Shown here one piece after another: positions 6,986 through 16,051 of a stretch of DNA of 45,880 nucleotides (position 1 is its first letter; every line of letters starts with the position of its first letter). The notes beneath the pieces were generated by a model. The model was not told where the DNA came from and ran no database searches. It saw only the letters and a list, made by a program, of their open reading frames with translations. Both the position numbers and the translations under genes were made by a program. Source of the stretch: a virus (taxonomy: Duplodnaviria; Heunggongvirae; Uroviricota; Caudoviricetes); the IMG/VR virus record IMGVR_UViG_2870484749_000003, positions 1-45,880 of that record; one strand, 5' to 3'.

Positions 6986-7678
6986 TTAATTGTGTCGCTT
7001 AAGGGTTTGTGACTGGCTGATTAAGACCTTTCCAAAGACCATAAACCGGTGTTCATTTTCGCTGGTAATTCCCCATTCACGGTAAATCTGGTTATCAGAA
7101 ATCACCAGTAGTTTGTCAGGTATCATTTGCAGTCGTTTGACATAAATTTTATCATCAAAACCAAATACATAGATACCATCTCCATCAAACTGATTGATAC
7201 TGACATCAACGAAGATGAGATCTCCTGGCTCAATGGTTGGACACATACTGTCCCCACGAACGTTGATAACTTTAATGTGATTGGCTGGCCGTCCGCCAAA
7301 CATCGATACAGCATTATCAGTTCTGTATTCAATGGCATGAATCACATCAATGACATCACCGCCCTGGATAAGGCCATTTCCCGCACTGGCACTGACATCC
7401 AGCATTTCAATACGGAATACATCCTTCACCTGCGCAACATCCTCACTAATACTGTTTTTACATACAGTATTACTTTTGACGTCTGAGGTAAAGAGATCAG
7501 CAATATCAACACCTAAGCTCCTGGCAATATTACTCAGGGCTTGTTCAGTGAATTGTTTCTGCTTACCTGTTTCCAGGCGTGAGATATTCGCCGCATCCAC
7601 TCCTATTGCTTCAGCGAGATCGGCGATTTTCATGTTCTTCGCCTGGCGAAGTTGTCTGACTCGGTTTCCTATGTTCAT
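6986..7678 (-). CDS. CI-like prophage repressor (HTH plus S24 LexA-like autopeptidase domain)
   Basis: N-terminal HTH (IADLAEAIGVDAANISRLETG); C-terminal GDSM serine and KR lysine motifs; possible Ala-Gly cleavage site in SASAGNG; divergent from the cro-like gene. Confidence 0.9.
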   Translation of the reverse strand: MNIGNRVRQLRQAKNMKIADLAEAIGVDAANISRLETGKQKQFTEQALSNIARSLGVDIADLFTSDVKSNTVCKNSISEDVAQVKDVFRIEMLDVSASAGNGLIQGGDVIDVIHAIEYRTDNAVSMFGGRPANHIKVINVRGDSMCPTIEPGDLIFVDVSINQFDGDGIYVFGFDDKIYVKRLQMIPDKLLVISDNQIYREWGITSENEHRFMVFGKVLISQSQTLKRHN

Positions 7679-8036: not shown

Positions 8037-8586
8037 TCATCACTGGAAAGTGGAAAAACAGCCTGAGTGGTACGTGAAAGCTGTCAGAAAAACTATCGCG
8101 GCGTTGCCGGGGGGTTACGCTGAAGCTGCTGAGTGGCTGGATGTAACAGAGAACGCATTATTTAACCGCCTTCGTGCCGATGGCGATCAGATTTTCCCGC
8201 TGGGATGGGCAATGATTTTACAACGTGCTGGTGGCACTCACTTCATTGCCGACGCTGTGGCGCAGTCTGCAAATGGCGTCTTTGTGTCTCTTCCTGACGT
8301 CGAGGATGTGGACAATGCCGATATTAACCAGCGTTTACTGGAAGTCATTGAACAGATCGGCAGTTATTCAAAACAGATTCGTTCGGCAATCGAAGACGGT
8401 GTAGTGGAACCGCATGAGAAGACAGCAATTAACGACGAGCTGTACCTCTCAATTTCGAAGCTGCAGGAGCATGCAGCACTTGTCTACAAAATTTTTTGCG
8501 TTTCAGAAAGTAATGACGCCCGCGAGTGTGCAGCTCCGGGCGTCGTGGCGTCGATTGCTTCTGGTTGTGGAGAAACTAACGCATGA
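8029..8586 (+). CDS. hypothetical early-right protein (possibly a CII-like regulator)
   Basis: 185 aa ORF overlapping the cro-like stop; product assignment is a guess from position. Confidence 0.5.
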
Positions 8587-8921
8587 ACAGTTTAACAACA
8601 CACTACCGTCGCTCGCAACTGATTGCGCTTCCTGTACCGGGTGGAAAAGCGAAGGTGGAGTATTGCTATGCAGTAAATGTACCAGGTGACAGGGAAATTG
8701 TAACCCACAGCTTTGCTGAGTGGGCTGTGGGGGATTTCAACCGGCAGAAGGAGACAGTCCTTTGCGACAAGTTAACCGCTGGTTCAAAGATCACTACGGA
8801 GTGCCCGTCAGAGTCATTCGTTGGGAGCCGGAAACACAACGGGTTATCTACCTCCGTGAAGGCTATGAGCATGAGTGCTTCAGCCCGCTCGAACAGTTTC
8901 GTCGTAAATTCAGGGAAATAG
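8583..8921 (+). CDS. hypothetical protein; only the N-terminal half looks protein-like
   Basis: ATG overlaps the upstream stop (ATGA coupling); C-terminal half is low-complexity and overlaps the 8720 ORF in another frame. Confidence 0.35.
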
Positions 8922-8941
8922 AGGTCGGTCATGAGCACTAA
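8720..8941 (+). CDS. hypothetical protein, alternative frame; C-terminal region looks protein-like
   Basis: [45 protein letters not shown]; stop overlaps the start of the replication gene. Confidence 0.35.
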
Positions 8942-9872
8942 ATTAACCGGCTATGTATGGGATGGTTGCGCTGCGTCAGGCATGAAATTATCCAGCGTGG
9001 CAATTATGGCCCGCCTGGCTGATTTCAGTAATGACGAAGGTGTGTGCTGGCCATCAATTGAAACTATTGCCCGTCAGATTGGCGCGGGGATGAGTACCGT
9101 CAGAACGGCTATCGCACGGCTGGAAGCAGAAGGCTGGTTAACGCGTAAGGCGCGTCGCCAGGGTAACCGCAATGCGTCGAATGTTTATCAGCTTAACGTT
9201 GCGAAGCTTCAGGCAGCGGCATTTTCTCAACTGTCAGATTCTGACCCGTCAAAATCTGACGCATCAAAATCTGACACGTCAAAATTTGATGCGTCGAAAT
9301 CTGGCAAAAAAGCGGGTTTTCACCCGTCAGAATCTGGCGGGGATCCGTCAGTAAAATCAAAACATGATCCGTCAGATAAAAAACCTTCTCGTCCGGACGC
9401 TTCGCAACCGGACACGCAGACGGCTGAACAGGATTTTTTAACTCGCCATCCTGATGCGGTTGTATTCAGCCCTAAAAAGCGCCAGTGGGGAACGCAGGAT
9501 GATTTGACCTGCGCACAGTGGCTCTGGAAAAAAATCATTGCCCTGTACGAGCAGGCCGCCGAATGTGACGGCGAGGTGGTTCGTCCCAAAGAACCGAACT
9601 GGACAGCCTGGGCAAACGAAATTCGCCTGATGTGTGTGCAGGATGGTCGTACTCACAAACAAATCTGCGAGATGTACAGCCGCGTCAGCCGCGATCCGTT
9701 CTGGTGCCGTAACGTGCTCAGCCCGTCGAAGCTGCGGGAAAAATGGGATGAGCTTTCCCTGCGCTTATCGCCGTCCATCAGCACATACACAGAAAAACGC
9801 GAAGACCCGTATTTCAAATCCAGTTACGACAGCGTGGACTACAGCCAGATCCCGGCAGGATTCAGGGGGTGA
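8931..9872 (+). CDS. replication initiation protein (O-like, N-terminal winged HTH), with iterons inside the gene
   Basis: N-terminal wHTH (PSIETIARQIGAGMSTVRTAIARLEAEGWL); SKSDASKSDTSKFDASKSG peptide repeats correspond to DNA iterons, as with lambda ori inside O. Confidence 0.75.
   Translation: MSTKLTGYVWDGCAASGMKLSSVAIMARLADFSNDEGVCWPSIETIARQIGAGMSTVRTAIARLEAEGWLTRKARRQGNRNASNVYQLNVAKLQAAAFSQLSDSDPSKSDASKSDTSKFDASKSGKKAGFHPSESGGDPSVKSKHDPSDKKPSRPDASQPDTQTAEQDFLTRHPDAVVFSPKKRQWGTQDDLTCAQWLWKKIIALYEQAAECDGEVVRPKEPNWTAWANEIRLMCVQDGRTHKQICEMYSRVSRDPFWCRNVLSPSKLREKWDELSLRLSPSISTYTEKREDPYFKSSYDSVDYSQIPAGFRG
9231..9384. repeat. iteron array (putative replication origin)
   Basis: Five contiguous ~15-bp repeats of type nCGTCAAAATCTGAC (9231-9305), then degenerate copies CCGTCAGAATCTGGC, CCGTCAGTAAAATC and CCGTCAGATAAAAAAC. 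Confidence 0.65.
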
Positions 9873-9874
9873 GC

Positions 9875-10204
9875 ATGAGTCTTTTGAATGAAGTTCAGAA
9901 ATTCATTGAAGCCCATCCGGGCTGTACTTCCGGAGACATTGCGGATGCTTTTGCAGGTTACTCACGGCAGCGCGTTCTGCAGTCAGCAAGCAAGTTACGT
10001 CAGAGTGGGCGTGTGGCTCACCGTTGTGAAGGGGATACACGCAGACATTTCCCGCGCCTGACTGAGAGAGCGCAGGAGCCGGAACCACAACCAGTTCGTG
10101 AAACCAGACCTGTGCGCAATTTCTATGTCGGCACTAACGATTCCCGGGTGATTTTGTGCCTGACTCGCCAGGCGGAAAAACTGGTCAGGGAGATGGCGGC
10201 ATGA
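9875..10204 (+). CDS. hypothetical protein (possible winged-helix DNA-binding)
   Basis: ATG with GGGGG RBS; translationally coupled (ATGA) to the downstream gene. Confidence 0.5.
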   Translation: MSLLNEVQKFIEAHPGCTSGDIADAFAGYSRQRVLQSASKLRQSGRVAHRCEGDTRRHFPRLTERAQEPEPQPVRETRPVRNFYVGTNDSRVILCLTRQAEKLVREMAA

Positions 10205-10527
10205 CGACGTTAACTCAATGCCAGCAGCAGGTGCTGGATATGCTGATTTCTTACCAGAAAGAACGTGGCTTCCCGCCAACCAATCAGGAGGTGGCAACCA
10301 TGCTGGGATACCGTTCAGTGAATGCAGCGGTGGAGCATCTTCGCGCACTGGAGAAAAAAGGCGTCATCACGATAAAGCGTGGCGTGGCCCGGGGGATCAC
10401 GCTTCATACCGCAGTGAAGGACGACGACAGCGAAGCGGTCGGTATCATCCGCGCACTGCTTGCCGGTGAGGAGAACGCTAGGTTGCGTGCAGCCCACTGG
10501 TTACATGAGAGGGGCCTGAAAGTATGA
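10201..10527 (+). CDS. LexA N-terminal DNA-binding-domain-like protein lacking the S24 peptidase domain
   Basis: LTQCQQQVLDMLISYQKERGFPPTNQEVATMLGYRSVNAAVEHLRALEKKGVITIKRGVARGITL aligns with the LexA N-terminus ([65 protein letters not shown], from memory); only 108 aa. Confidence 0.7.
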   Translation: MTTLTQCQQQVLDMLISYQKERGFPPTNQEVATMLGYRSVNAAVEHLRALEKKGVITIKRGVARGITLHTAVKDDDSEAVGIIRALLAGEENARLRAAHWLHERGLKV

Positions 10528-13189: not shown

Positions 13190-14230
13190 GTGAACATTCA
13201 AGCAGTAGACATTTTTTGTGGCGCAGGGGGCTTAACTTTTGGGCTAAAAAAAGCCGGGATTGAAGTTTCTCATGGCATTGATATTGATGAGTCCTGCCGT
13301 TTCGCTATTGAGAGCAATAATCCCTTAACGAAGTTCATTAACCAGTCAGTTACTGAACTGCAATCCAGCGATGTGTCTGCTATGTTCAAGGAAGGAAATA
13401 TTAGATTACTTGCAGGCTGTGCCCCTTGCCAACCGTTTTCCAAGTATCGTAATCCAAATAGCAGAAAAGATGATACAAAGTGGCGTCTTTTATCTGAGTT
13501 TCAGAGGATTGTAAGTGATGTCATGCCAGAGCTTGTGACTATGGAAAATGTTCCTCAACTTAGAAATCATAAGGTTTTTGAAGAGTTTGTTAGTGTATTA
13601 AAGACTCTTGGGTATCATCTGTGGTACGACGTTGTAAAATGTTCCGAGTATGGCTTGCCTCAAAATAGACGTAGATTAATTCTAATTGGGTCCATATTGG
13701 GGCCAATCAGCCTTGATCAAAAAAAAGTAAGCCGTAAAGTTACAGTAAAGGATGCTATTGGTCAGTTGCCAAAAATAGGTGCAGGGGAGAAACTCGAAAG
13801 TGATCCATTGCATCGTTCGCCTAAATTAAGGGATATTAACCTTAAACGAATCTTGCACTCTTTACCAGGTGGTACGTGGGATGATTGGCCTGAAGAAATT
13901 AGAGCGGATTGCCATAAAAAGCATTCAGGTGCTACCTATAAAAGTGTTTATGGACGGATGGTTTGGGACGATACTAGTCCTACAATAACTACCCAATGTT
14001 ATGGATATGGTAATGGGCGATTCGGACATCCTGAGCAAAATAGAGCAATAACTTTGCGTGAAGCTGCTATTTTACAATCTTTTCCTATGGATTATAAATT
14101 TATTGGAAAAAATACGCCTTTTTCATTCCAAAAGTTAGGAACGATGATTGGTAATGCTGTTCCCCCTATAATTGGCCAAGTAATAGGGAGAACGTTTGTT
14201 AGGCATGTTGAGGGGATAAATATCCGTTAG
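13190..14230 (+). CDS. DNA (cytosine-5)-methyltransferase (Dcm-like)
   Basis: Canonical C5-MTase motifs: FCGAGG (I), GCAPCQPFS (IV, catalytic PC), ENV (VI), QNRRR (VIII), GNAVPP (X); GTG start with GGAG RBS; AT-rich by eye. Confidence 0.9.
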   Translation: MNIQAVDIFCGAGGLTFGLKKAGIEVSHGIDIDESCRFAIESNNPLTKFINQSVTELQSSDVSAMFKEGNIRLLAGCAPCQPFSKYRNPNSRKDDTKWRLLSEFQRIVSDVMPELVTMENVPQLRNHKVFEEFVSVLKTLGYHLWYDVVKCSEYGLPQNRRRLILIGSILGPISLDQKKVSRKVTVKDAIGQLPKIGAGEKLESDPLHRSPKLRDINLKRILHSLPGGTWDDWPEEIRADCHKKHSGATYKSVYGRMVWDDTSPTITTQCYGYGNGRFGHPEQNRAITLREAAILQSFPMDYKFIGKNTPFSFQKLGTMIGNAVPPIIGQVIGRTFVRHVEGINIR

Positions 14231-14888
14231 AGATAATATAATCTTCAGTTGAGTTTATTAATAAACGAAGATATAGATCAACTCTCTCTGCTCTAGACTT
14301 AACTTCTTCTAAGGGGTCAATTTGCCCCTTTTTAGAGAAGCTAGTACTTCCATGCGCGAGTTCGTTTCTGATATCCTTAAGCAAGTCTAAGTCAATACCA
14401 TTTCTACATTCAGGTGAGTTTGCGATAGTTATTCCGTAAGCCTGCGTTATTTTGTGTAATACAGGCTTGCAAACATTACCATTGAATTCTTTACGAATAT
14501 TCAATGAGGCTGAAATTATTCTTTTGGAAATGTCAGTGCCTATCTTTTTATAAAGGGATTGCCCTGTTTCATTATCTGAAACAATTCTATGTAATATATT
14601 TACTTGAAGCTTCTCCCTGAGTGATGCGTAATTCACCTCATTATCTTGTAAATGATCATAAATTGACTCGATGCAACCTCTGGCAGTATTTTCAACTTGA
14701 TTATATAGCATCATATGAACGGATGATTTTAAAATATTTACCCTTAGGATATTAGATTCTATTTCATCTTGATGCGCTTGCGGATCTAACTGCTGAGTAT
14801 GAATCTCTATAGATGATGCAAGAGAAAGCAGTTCCATAATGTCTCTTGCTCTTTCTTCATATTCATCTCGTAAATCAATTAGACTCAT
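14199..14888 (-). CDS. HEPN-like nuclease (resembles MAE_28990/MAE_18760 family)
   Basis: C-terminal Rx4H HEPN motif in DIRNELAHG; start 2 nt after the DUF262 stop; 3' end overlaps the convergent C5-MTase by 32 bp; AT-rich. Confidence 0.75.
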   Translation of the reverse strand: MSLIDLRDEYEERARDIMELLSLASSIEIHTQQLDPQAHQDEIESNILRVNILKSSVHMMLYNQVENTARGCIESIYDHLQDNEVNYASLREKLQVNILHRIVSDNETGQSLYKKIGTDISKRIISASLNIRKEFNGNVCKPVLHKITQAYGITIANSPECRNGIDLDLLKDIRNELAHGSTSFSKKGQIDPLEEVKSRAERVDLYLRLLINSTEDYIISNGYLSPQHA

Positions 14889-14890
14889 TT

Positions 14891-16051
14891 TTAAATCCCT
14901 AACAACTTATTTTTAACGTAAAAGATTCTGTTTTTTAGCTGGCTGGTATTGTTTGCACTATCAGCAGTAACAAGTGTTTCAAATTCCTCTTCAAATAGCC
15001 ATTCACCTACAGGTACGGCTGGACTCTGGAGTTGTGGGTTAGTTTTTAATGCAAGTGCAGTTCCCACGGCAATGGCTTCGTATCTGGCTCGTGGGGTGGT
15101 TTTACTTGTTGCGGTCTTTTTAAAGCCAATAGGGAAATGGGTAGCAACAAAAGCAAGCATCATTTCAAAATCATGTTTAAAATTATCAACATCTTGTTGA
15201 GTAGTCACAGCTGCTGCTTGTTCATTTAAATAATTATCAATAAAGGGACGGACAAATCCCTTATAGTTTTCTAAATCATTTAAATATGCAAAAAATCTCA
15301 AAACTAACTCACGATGATCGCCATTCGACCGTTTCCGGTCTGATAATGGAGCTAGTTGGGAAAAAAGTGAGTTTGTTGAGCATGGGGTCACAACATCTTT
15401 ATAGAACATTGAGGTAGCAGCATCTGAGCCATGCCTCACTTCCATCGCTTCTAATCTTTTAACACCTGAGTTGATCCTTTCAAATAAATCTCTTCTATGT
15501 TGTTCCTCAACATCACCTTTCAACTCAATAAATCTTAGTGAAGCTCTTAAAAATCTTCTTTGGCGGCTAGCTAAAAGATCTGAAAATTTGAAACCTTCTA
15601 AACTTTTAAGCTCTTTCAAATCCTTTAACTCAAATTGATCGTTCCAAAAATAATAAATAGAGCGTATCCGTTGTGAACCATCAATGATTTCTACCCTACC
15701 ATCTAATTCAGGGTCTTCATTAAATACATCAGCAATGTAAAGGTAAGGTATTGGAAAGTCTAATAGAATACTTTCTATAAAGCGAGAGGCTGTTTTTGTA
15801 TCCCACTTGTAATCACGTTGATAATCTGGAATAAAAAGCTCGTTTTTGTCATTTTCAATATTATCACCATACTTTTGAATAATGACTTCAACGGTCCACT
15901 CACGTACATTGTATCCAATGTTTCTCTGAGCGAGTCTGATTTCATTGTCAGCGGAAGCGGTTAAAGCTGCAATTTCAGCCTTTTTTCTGTTCTTAGCGTG
16001 TTCATCTTGTATCTGAGCAAGCTCTTCTTTGAGTTCTTTGAGTGTAGTCAT
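14891..16051 (-). CDS. DUF262 (ParB/Srx-like) domain protein
   Basis: IPDYQRDYKW and IDGSQR (DGQQR-type) DUF262 signatures; AAGGAA RBS; no recognisable DUF1524/HNH C-terminal domain; AT-rich. Confidence 0.8.
   Translation of the reverse strand: MTTLKELKEELAQIQDEHAKNRKKAEIAALTASADNEIRLAQRNIGYNVREWTVEVIIQKYGDNIENDKNELFIPDYQRDYKWDTKTASRFIESILLDFPIPYLYIADVFNEDPELDGRVEIIDGSQRIRSIYYFWNDQFELKDLKELKSLEGFKFSDLLASRQRRFLRASLRFIELKGDVEEQHRRDLFERINSGVKRLEAMEVRHGSDAATSMFYKDVVTPCSTNSLFSQLAPLSDRKRSNGDHRELVLRFFAYLNDLENYKGFVRPFIDNYLNEQAAAVTTQQDVDNFKHDFEMMLAFVATHFPIGFKKTATSKTTPRARYEAIAVGTALALKTNPQLQSPAVPVGEWLFEEEFETLVTADSANNTSQLKNRIFYVKNKLLGI

Follow-up and report, generated by a model that had tools for sequence, protein, structure and literature searches.

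Phage lambda carries its replication origin inside the open reading frame (ORF) of its initiator, O, between the portions encoding the DNA-binding and the C-terminal domains, in the form of four tandem, dyad-symmetric iterons of 18-19 bp with an A+T-rich segment on their right; the gene itself follows cro and cII in the rightward early operon. In the gene 18/gene 12 system of P22, an annotated rep_origin also lies inside the initiator gene, 18, and the phage supplies its own DnaB-type helicase. A loader-less module is present in about one in ten enterobacterial lambdoid phages, Stx-converting and Shigella serotype-converting phages among them (PMC12315714). That paper (Genome Res 2025) assigns phage LLS and 34 of 314 lambdoid phages to these O-only modules, names mEp460_4F5 and describes their replication as 'not yet understood'; Stx phage type Eru6, Stx2a_WGPS2, has a similar O-only module (PMC8951638). 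The present analysis concerns the initiator gene of a SfIV/SfII-like lambdoid (pro)phage, IMG/VR record IMGVR_UViG_2870484749_000003, whose positions 1 to 45,880 were analysed as a whole and are called the window (45.9 kb) from here on. Two parts of this gene are at issue, an array of 15-bp repeats proposed as the replication origin and a C-terminal tail of the encoded protein that is shared with the host protein DnaT.

The window resembles lambda in the placement of the repeats between the two initiator domains, in the A+T-rich segment to their right, in the position of the gene after cro- and CII-like genes in the rightward early operon and in the homology of the C-terminal domains. It differs in having six 15-bp units of the contiguous type (five contiguous and a sixth) and two half-sites, in having an HTH_36 N-terminal domain where lambda O has Phage_rep_O, and in having no P gene and a protein that ends in ...IPAGFRG where lambda O ends in ...DWIYGVDL. 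P22 gp18 has the Phage_rep_O domain and no GFRG tail. The O-only modules of phage LLS and Eru6 are like the window in consisting of a single O-homolog gene with no helicase or loader, and mEp460_4F5 has the C-domain and the tail of the window initiator; the two papers on these modules describe neither iterons nor tail and state that the mechanism is not understood. As an origin, the array would be an ordinary lambda-style arrangement, but one that seems not to have been described in the SfIV/SfII/SfV group (iterons go unmentioned in the SfIV genome paper). What departs from the ori-in-O arrangement of lambda is the loader-less initiator with a DnaT-type tail.

DnaT, primosomal protein i, is a restart factor that is believed to deliver DnaB-DnaC to the replication fork, and the literature of 2024-2026 states that the way in which it recruits DnaB/DnaC is not known and assigns no partner to its tail. 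The window initiator and DnaT have near-identical tails, and dnaC directly follows dnaT as phage dnaC genes follow tail-bearing initiators. The window initiator lacks the PF17948 three-helix domain of DnaT, which binds single-stranded DNA, as well as the DnaT N-domain, and it would be targeted by iterons where DnaT is targeted by PriA/PriB. The YdaU-YdaV pair of the Rac prophage and the phage initiator-DnaC modules have initiator-like proteins with the same class of tail, on many initiator bodies, but encode their own DnaC homolog 6 nt downstream, whereas the window encodes none and would rely on that of the host. An O-like protein has already been linked to DnaT by Brezellec et al. 2017 (PMC5509034), who described a 'DnaT C-terminal motif' (PDB 2ru8) in the O-like HTH_36 protein DopC. 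DopC differs in being the product of a domesticated chromosomal gene that is paired with the P-like DopE and has no iterons, and that paper draws no connection of the tail with loader type.

The iteron array in the initiator gene

The features of the initiator gene used in the analysis are given below.

8931-9872, + strand: replication initiator gene, an ORF of 313 residues; PHROG 391, 'replication initiation O-like' (2e-134); DNA 98.8% identical to gp41 of Shigella phage SfIV
8931-9230, + strand: putative N-terminal origin-binding domain, residues 1-100, an HTH_36 winged helix (Pfam)
9231-9410, + strand: linker-coding region that would host the origin, residues about 101-160, predicted disordered
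9231-9245, 9246-9260, 9261-9275, 9276-9290 and 9291-9305, + strand: five contiguous 15-bp iterons with consensus nCGTCAAAATCTGAC, each with GTCA-N5-TGAC / TGAC-N2-GTCA dyad symmetry
9324-9338, + strand: sixth iteron, cCGTCAGAATCTGGC, after an 18-bp spacer and in the most conserved bin (third-position identity 0.94)
9342-9351 and 9366-9375, + strand: two half-copies, GATCCGTCAG, with one GATC site each (GATC at 9342 and 9366)
9350-9390, strand-neutral: candidate DNA-unwinding element, 68% A+T, the least stable 40 bp of the gene (nearest-neighbour free energy -48.3 kcal/mol, 96.6th percentile of the window)
9438-9764, + strand: C-terminal domain, residues about 170-278, with a blastp match to lambda O (5e-26); helical in the AlphaFold2 model over residues 160-280, predicted local distance difference test (pLDDT) score 70-93
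9798-9869, + strand: C-terminal tail REDPYFKSSYDSVDYSQIPAGFRG, with its core IPAGFRG at 9849-9869; common to DnaT and many unrelated phage initiators

The protein is built of a winged-helix N-domain, a linker predicted to be disordered, a lambda-O-like C-terminal domain and the DnaT-like tail, in this order. An earlier sequence-only reading of this DNA had called the initiator 'O-like'. The term fits the C-terminal domain, which is homologous to lambda O residues about 175-270, but not the N-terminus, since Pfam finds HTH_36 only and gives no match to PF04492 (Phage_rep_O), the model on which lambda O scores 6e-36 and P22 gp18 7e-38. The C-terminal domain matches no Pfam model, and by sequence it has no relative of solved structure; searches of solved structures with the whole protein and with the C-domain profile returned only winged-helix (MarR-like) matches or nothing. 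NCBIfam offers no useful name, and SfIV gp41 is annotated as 'primosomal protein' or 'replication protein'. In an AlphaFold2 model built on a 32-sequence alignment, residues 1-100 form a winged helix, linker residues 102-159 have pLDDT values below 50 and are predicted to be disordered, and the length of the linker is hypervariable among homologs; going by this model, the peptide encoded by the repeats is the disordered linker.

The sequence-only reading had placed at least five contiguous direct repeats of about 15 bp, plus degenerate copies, at 9231-9384 of the initiator coding sequence. These coordinates are accurate, and the region consists of the five contiguous iterons, the sixth and the two half-copies listed above. 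As that reading had also stated, the repeats give rise to a repeated peptide, SDSDPSKSDASKSDTSKFDASKSG (SKSDASKSD...), being in frame within the ORF. Tandem Repeats Finder, the check it had proposed, reports 9240-9303 with a period of 15, 4.3 copies and 81% matches, and no other array of comparable score in the window. When up to 3 mismatches are allowed, CGTCAAAATCTGAC has 19 matches in the window as compared with 4.7 +/- 2.4 in shuffled sequences, none of the 100 shuffles reaching 19; 11 of the 19 fall within 9232-9339, and the copies on the + strand start at 9232, 9247, 9262, 9277, 9292 and 9325. The TGAC-N2-GTCA dyads recur at 15-bp spacing, and the palindrome TGAC-NN-GTCA (TGACNNGTCA), searched with at most 1 mismatch, has 5 of its 21 window-wide matches inside the 133 bp of 9242-9374. 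A period of 30 fits 9240-9303 better than a period of 15 (85-88% match vs 81%), and the units alternate between CC/AC-GTCA and GC-ATCA; since the alternating units are 15 bp apart, their sites would face roughly opposite faces of the helix.

We consider 9231-9390 to be very probably the replication origin of this SfIV/SfII-type lambdoid prophage, located inside the part of the gene that encodes the initiator linker, because the linker is conserved at synonymous sites, the array varies by whole units, the repeat changes together with the type of N-domain and the right flank is unstable. Together with the position and dyad symmetry of the repeats, these properties support the earlier proposal of a lambda-like ori inside the gene. 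Among 18 diverged genes with the same N-domain, the identity at third codon positions averages 0.79 over 9231-9410 and 0.52 in the folded N-domain, with peaks of 0.89 at 9231-9260 and 0.94 at 9321-9350. Synonymous sites are thus more conserved in a disordered linker than in a folded domain, the opposite of what would be expected of a linker, which argues that selection acts on the DNA of the repeat region. The repeats occur in the homologous initiator genes of relatives with the same N-domain, and near-identical genes of 308, 313, 318 and 323 residues, drawn from related loci of 97-100% identity, have 5, 6, 7 and 8 units, respectively; therefore the array changes by whole iterons. More than 10 repeat units are found in a Klebsiella homolog.

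Three types of repeat accompany three types of N-domain, and the repeat follows the N-domain and not the C-domain. N-type A, which comprises the window, SfIV, Citrobacter phiNP and Klebsiella Kp4872-1, has the 15-bp TCTGACnCGTCAAAA repeat with a C-domain that is either lambda-O-like or Phg_2220_C; phiNP has the 15-bp unit despite its unrelated Phg_2220_C C-domain. N-type B (PhiR42_1 and mEp460_4F5) shares its C-domain with the window initiator but repeats a unit of 23-24 bp, GGTCAAAATGACACGATGCCATCG; in N-type C (SfV and Stx2a_WGPS2) the unit is GGTAGTGCAGGAGATTCACCA, of 21-24 bp. Immediately right of the array comes the least stable segment of the gene, which bears the two GATC half-sites.

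The iterons might serve mainly for control, by autoregulation, titration or handcuffing as in iteron plasmids, with strand opening and helicase loading taking place at another site. Plasmid iterons do serve initiation and control alike, and extra CCGTCAGA half-sites are present upstream at 8805, 9071 and 9097. The least stable segment of the gene nevertheless abuts the array, the layout agrees with the annotated origins of lambda and P22, and no other candidate origin was seen: there is no second array, and DnaA boxes with at most 1 mismatch are absent from the array and its immediate flanks, and the single one in 8500-10300 is at 8566, upstream of the initiator gene. This makes a mainly regulatory array improbable. 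It is less probable again that the repeats are a low-complexity coding repeat generated by slippage, with no role in cis and an origin elsewhere, for although the region encodes a disordered S/D/K/P-rich linker whose length varies freely among homologs, its synonymous sites are more conserved than those of the folded domain, its units are dyad-symmetric, its sequence switches with N-domain type among three unrelated types and nothing of similar score exists in the window.

The upstream half-sites, CCGTCAGA...GGC at 8805, 9071-9083 and 9097-9109 (families D8 and D9), fall inside the N-domain coding region and the preceding gene, and may act as auxiliary sites for binding or simply be matches due to chance.

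Loader genes and the DnaT-type tail

The sequence-only reading had noted no DnaC/P-like loader gene downstream of the initiator, and the searches agree with it. Queries with lambda P, DnaC, DnaB and DnaT (phmmer, six frames of the window, E<=1) gave as their only match the lambda-O match of the initiator ORF, and no loader or helicase was found by Pfam and PHROG among the neighbouring genes. Specifically, no P-family (PF06992) gene lies next to the initiator in any of the six frames of the window and no DnaC-family AAA+ gene lies downstream of it in the window. Since the phage has no P, DnaC or DnaB gene, it must use the host DnaB-DnaC complex; how DnaB is recruited had been left open by that reading, in accordance with PMC12315714. 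Two candidates for a hidden loader were rejected. A conserved downstream gene does not exist, because relatives carry different genes at that position (PerC-like, an unnamed 162-aa ORF, LygF, methyltransferases, ParB-like, DUF1627), and the upstream DUF4222 gene cannot substitute for P, because it is found both with and without P.

A search of the initiator C-terminus by profile comparison had been suggested in order to find a DnaB-interaction domain. The C-terminus does hold an informative feature, a DnaT-type tail. The window initiator ends in ...SQIPAGFRG and E. coli DnaT in ...SQIPPGFRG, with 8 of 9 residues matching; the initiator conforms to the motif [IVLT]-P-x-G-F-R-G, in which an acidic or polar stretch precedes these terminal residues. 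The end of the PhiR42_1 initiator, VNHISEPDTEIPPGFRG, matches that of DnaT, VNTVSEPDSQIPPGFRG, in 14 of 17 residues, and YdaU of the Rac prophage ends in VNTVSLPDSAIPPGFRG (...PDSAIPPGFRG). When the C-domain profile was aligned with DnaT (hhalign), only the last 22 residues aligned, and the folded domains of the two proteins showed no detectable relationship. Full-length homology of the initiator to DnaT was rejected, as blastp and hhalign align the tail alone and the Pfam DnaT model (PF17948) gives no match; that model stops at residue 153, before the tail. Among DnaT orthologs the conservation of the tail is 0.88, equal to that of the folded domain.

The tail is found on a variety of initiator bodies. 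With tblastn, the initiators of some phages match the window initiator in the last 33 residues only. The last 76 nt of the gene (9797-9872) are 93-95% identical in phages with an unrelated initiator body (SfV orf39, Stx2a phages, mEp460 and cdtI), which on comparison of the sequences points to a mosaic recombination junction right at the tail. A scan of viral-contig DNA for I-P-x-G-F-R-G followed by TGA gave 195 matches in the retrieved loci, about 190 of which are the C-terminus of an initiator-like ORF of at least 200 residues. Among the tail-bearing sequences, 100 proteins are unique; their N-termini fall into about 11 types and their C-termini into 6, namely lambda-O-like, SfV-like, Phg_2220_C, two unnamed types and one true DnaT domain. 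Synonymous codons vary at every position of the motif. The protein with the true DnaT domain, L146 (IMGVR_UViG_2597490225_000006), has 275 residues and joins an unrelated N-domain of about 180 residues to a PF17948 domain (E 9e-18, residues 185-250) and an IPPGFRG tail; from its domain composition it looks like a phage-initiator form of DnaT.

The type of tail was compared with the type of loader around 178 full-length tail-bearing genes, over a neighbourhood of -4 to +6 kb. In that interval there is no lambda-P or DnaB homolog for any of the 178, and in 16 a DnaC homolog (E about 1e-75) starts 6 nt after the stop codon, the rest having none. Queried separately as a single protein, E. coli DnaC found only host-like dnaC. 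Conversely, the gene upstream of phage dnaC ends in ...EIPPGFRG at 76 of 78 loci, the O protein at lambda-P loci ends in ...DWIYGVDL (79/79), and neither tail is present on P22 gp18, whose gene is followed by that of a DnaB-type helicase. E. coli K-12 has dnaT followed by dnaC, and in Rac ydaU is followed by the DnaC-like ydaV. At the Rac locus (L369, 2620-4230), YdaU is a DUF1376 protein and ydaV starts 6 nt later, in the same layout as dnaT-dnaC; a 2009 proteomic atlas reported a functional link of YdaU to DnaT, DnaA and DnaE.

The same comparison can be made inside one family, whose members share both the N-domain and the C-domain at 57-76% identity. A minority of this family has no GFR tail, three members ending in a lambda-like ...DWIYGIE... 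and others in ...W..PEGW..VL. PF06992 (Phage_lambda_P) lies immediately downstream in 8 of the 8 homologs without the GFR tail that were examined and in 0 of 8 tail-bearing genes (four examined homologs, the window, SfIV, PhiR42_1 and mEp460_4F5), a difference with P about 8e-5 by Fisher's exact test (hand calculation) between lineages that are not fully independent. Therefore the last ~15 residues of one homologous protein switch together with the loader. The literature searched, whose coverage is incomplete, contains no report of the link between tail and loader or of these iterons.

Possible routes of helicase recruitment

The explanation that best accounts for the whole, an origin within the initiator gene with the host DnaB-DnaC recruited via the tail, seems to us likely. 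Dimers of the winged-helix N-terminal domain would bind the six dyad-symmetric 15-bp iterons and the two half-sites, and the resulting nucleoprotein complex would destabilise the adjacent A+T-rich segment at 9350-9390, by analogy with lambda O and ori-lambda. As the source of its helicase, the phage would use the host DnaB-DnaC complex. The ...SQIPAGFRG tail would then dock DnaB6-DnaC6 and so deliver it to the opened origin, presumably through contact with DnaC or with DnaB-DnaC, and would take the place filled in lambda by O's own tail and the P protein. The argument for docking is that the tail is the only element shared with DnaT and that recruitment of DnaB-DnaC is the only function of DnaT that is needed here. 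Taken alone, the proposal that the tail recruits or docks DnaB-DnaC, that of the host in the window and one with phage-encoded DnaC in relatives, stands at nearly even odds. We hold just short of that, and put forward tentatively, the wider proposal that [I/V]-P-x-G-F-R-G is a portable DnaB-DnaC docking motif, used by DnaT in restart and by mosaic enterobacterial phage initiators at origins, with phage or host DnaC.

Several points weigh against this explanation. The A+T-rich flank has only 68% A+T, much less extreme than that of lambda. The link between the tail and DnaC is a correlation, no contact between DnaT and DnaC has ever been documented, a preprimosome paper of 2026 favours the N-terminal domain of DnaT for recruiting DnaB/DnaC, and the tail could bind another host protein. 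The scan for the tail took in TGA stops only, and the viral-contig samples are highly redundant, being mostly Escherichia/Shigella prophages, so that the high counts do not stand for as many independent events; independent support comes from the way the tail is spread, as a mosaic, over N- and C-domain types and from the 8-versus-8 family test.

The most serious alternative is that the helicase is recruited without the tail, by a C-domain that binds DnaB or DnaB-DnaC as in some plasmid Rep proteins, by a PriA-dependent primosome on an R- or D-loop, or by recombination-dependent growth, for which phages of this group have been studied (PMC12315714). The C-domain is well conserved (60-98%) in P-containing and P-less modules alike and therefore has a function beyond binding P. 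Against this, within one C-domain family it is only the tail that switches with the presence of P, the tail is kept on six unrelated types of C-domain, and it is the sole element common to DnaT and the initiator. A route that bypasses the tail is, on this evidence, unlikely.

The tail, with an acidic stretch followed by I-P-x-G-F, loosely recalls the C-terminal tail of SSB, and this resemblance counts for a different host factor as its partner. Such a factor could be PriA, PriB, SSB, a chaperone or a protease, and the tail might deliver the initiator to the restart primosome or regulate how stable the protein is. The known work of DnaT with PriA and PriB and the lack of a documented contact with DnaC also favour this possibility. 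However, the preprimosome structures of 2026, in which the tail is not discussed, put PriA on the folded C-domain of DnaT and PriB on its linker, the DnaT chains deposited for the mature complex extend no further than residue 154, and phage dnaC genes are nearly always preceded, with a 6-nt gap, by a tail-bearing gene. We judge a different partner to be slightly less probable than a route without the tail.

If the tail is the dock for DnaB-DnaC, this would explain how O-only lambdoid phages load their helicase and would identify the missing contact of DnaT with DnaB/DnaC, addressing how DnaT hands DnaB-DnaC to the fork in E. coli restart. It would further point to a phage initiator-dnaC module as the ancestor of dnaT-dnaC, the origin-binding domain having been lost, with L146 as an intermediate form. 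The role proposed for the DnaT-type tail is specific enough to be tested by deleting it.

Neighbouring genes in the window

The initiator gene is part of the rightward early operon. Upstream of it are a cI-like repressor gene (6986-7678, - strand), a cro-like gene, a CII-like gene and the small DUF4222 gene (8720-8941), which lies directly before the initiator and recurs in most related modules, with or without a P gene. Downstream are PerC-like, LexA-DNA-binding-domain-like, RusA, KilA-N, DUF968/HNH and Q-like genes. The PerC-like ORF at 9869-10204 encodes 111 residues in the window and 164 in SfIV gp42, and in Stx2a_WGPS2 this gene is split by IS629; because of this split and the variation in length, it is unlikely to be essential for replication.

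The window contains no tRNA gene. Between the Q-like antiterminator and the late genes, 13190-16051 holds a C5 DNA methyltransferase gene (13190-14230, + strand) followed by convergent genes for a HEPN protein (14199-14888, - strand) and a GmrSD_N/DUF262 protein (14891-16051, - strand), an arrangement suggestive of a defence 'moron' cassette. At the left edge, the ORF 1-708 encodes a DUF2713 protein (E 1.5e-167) and may be a host gene or a gene of the prophage end.

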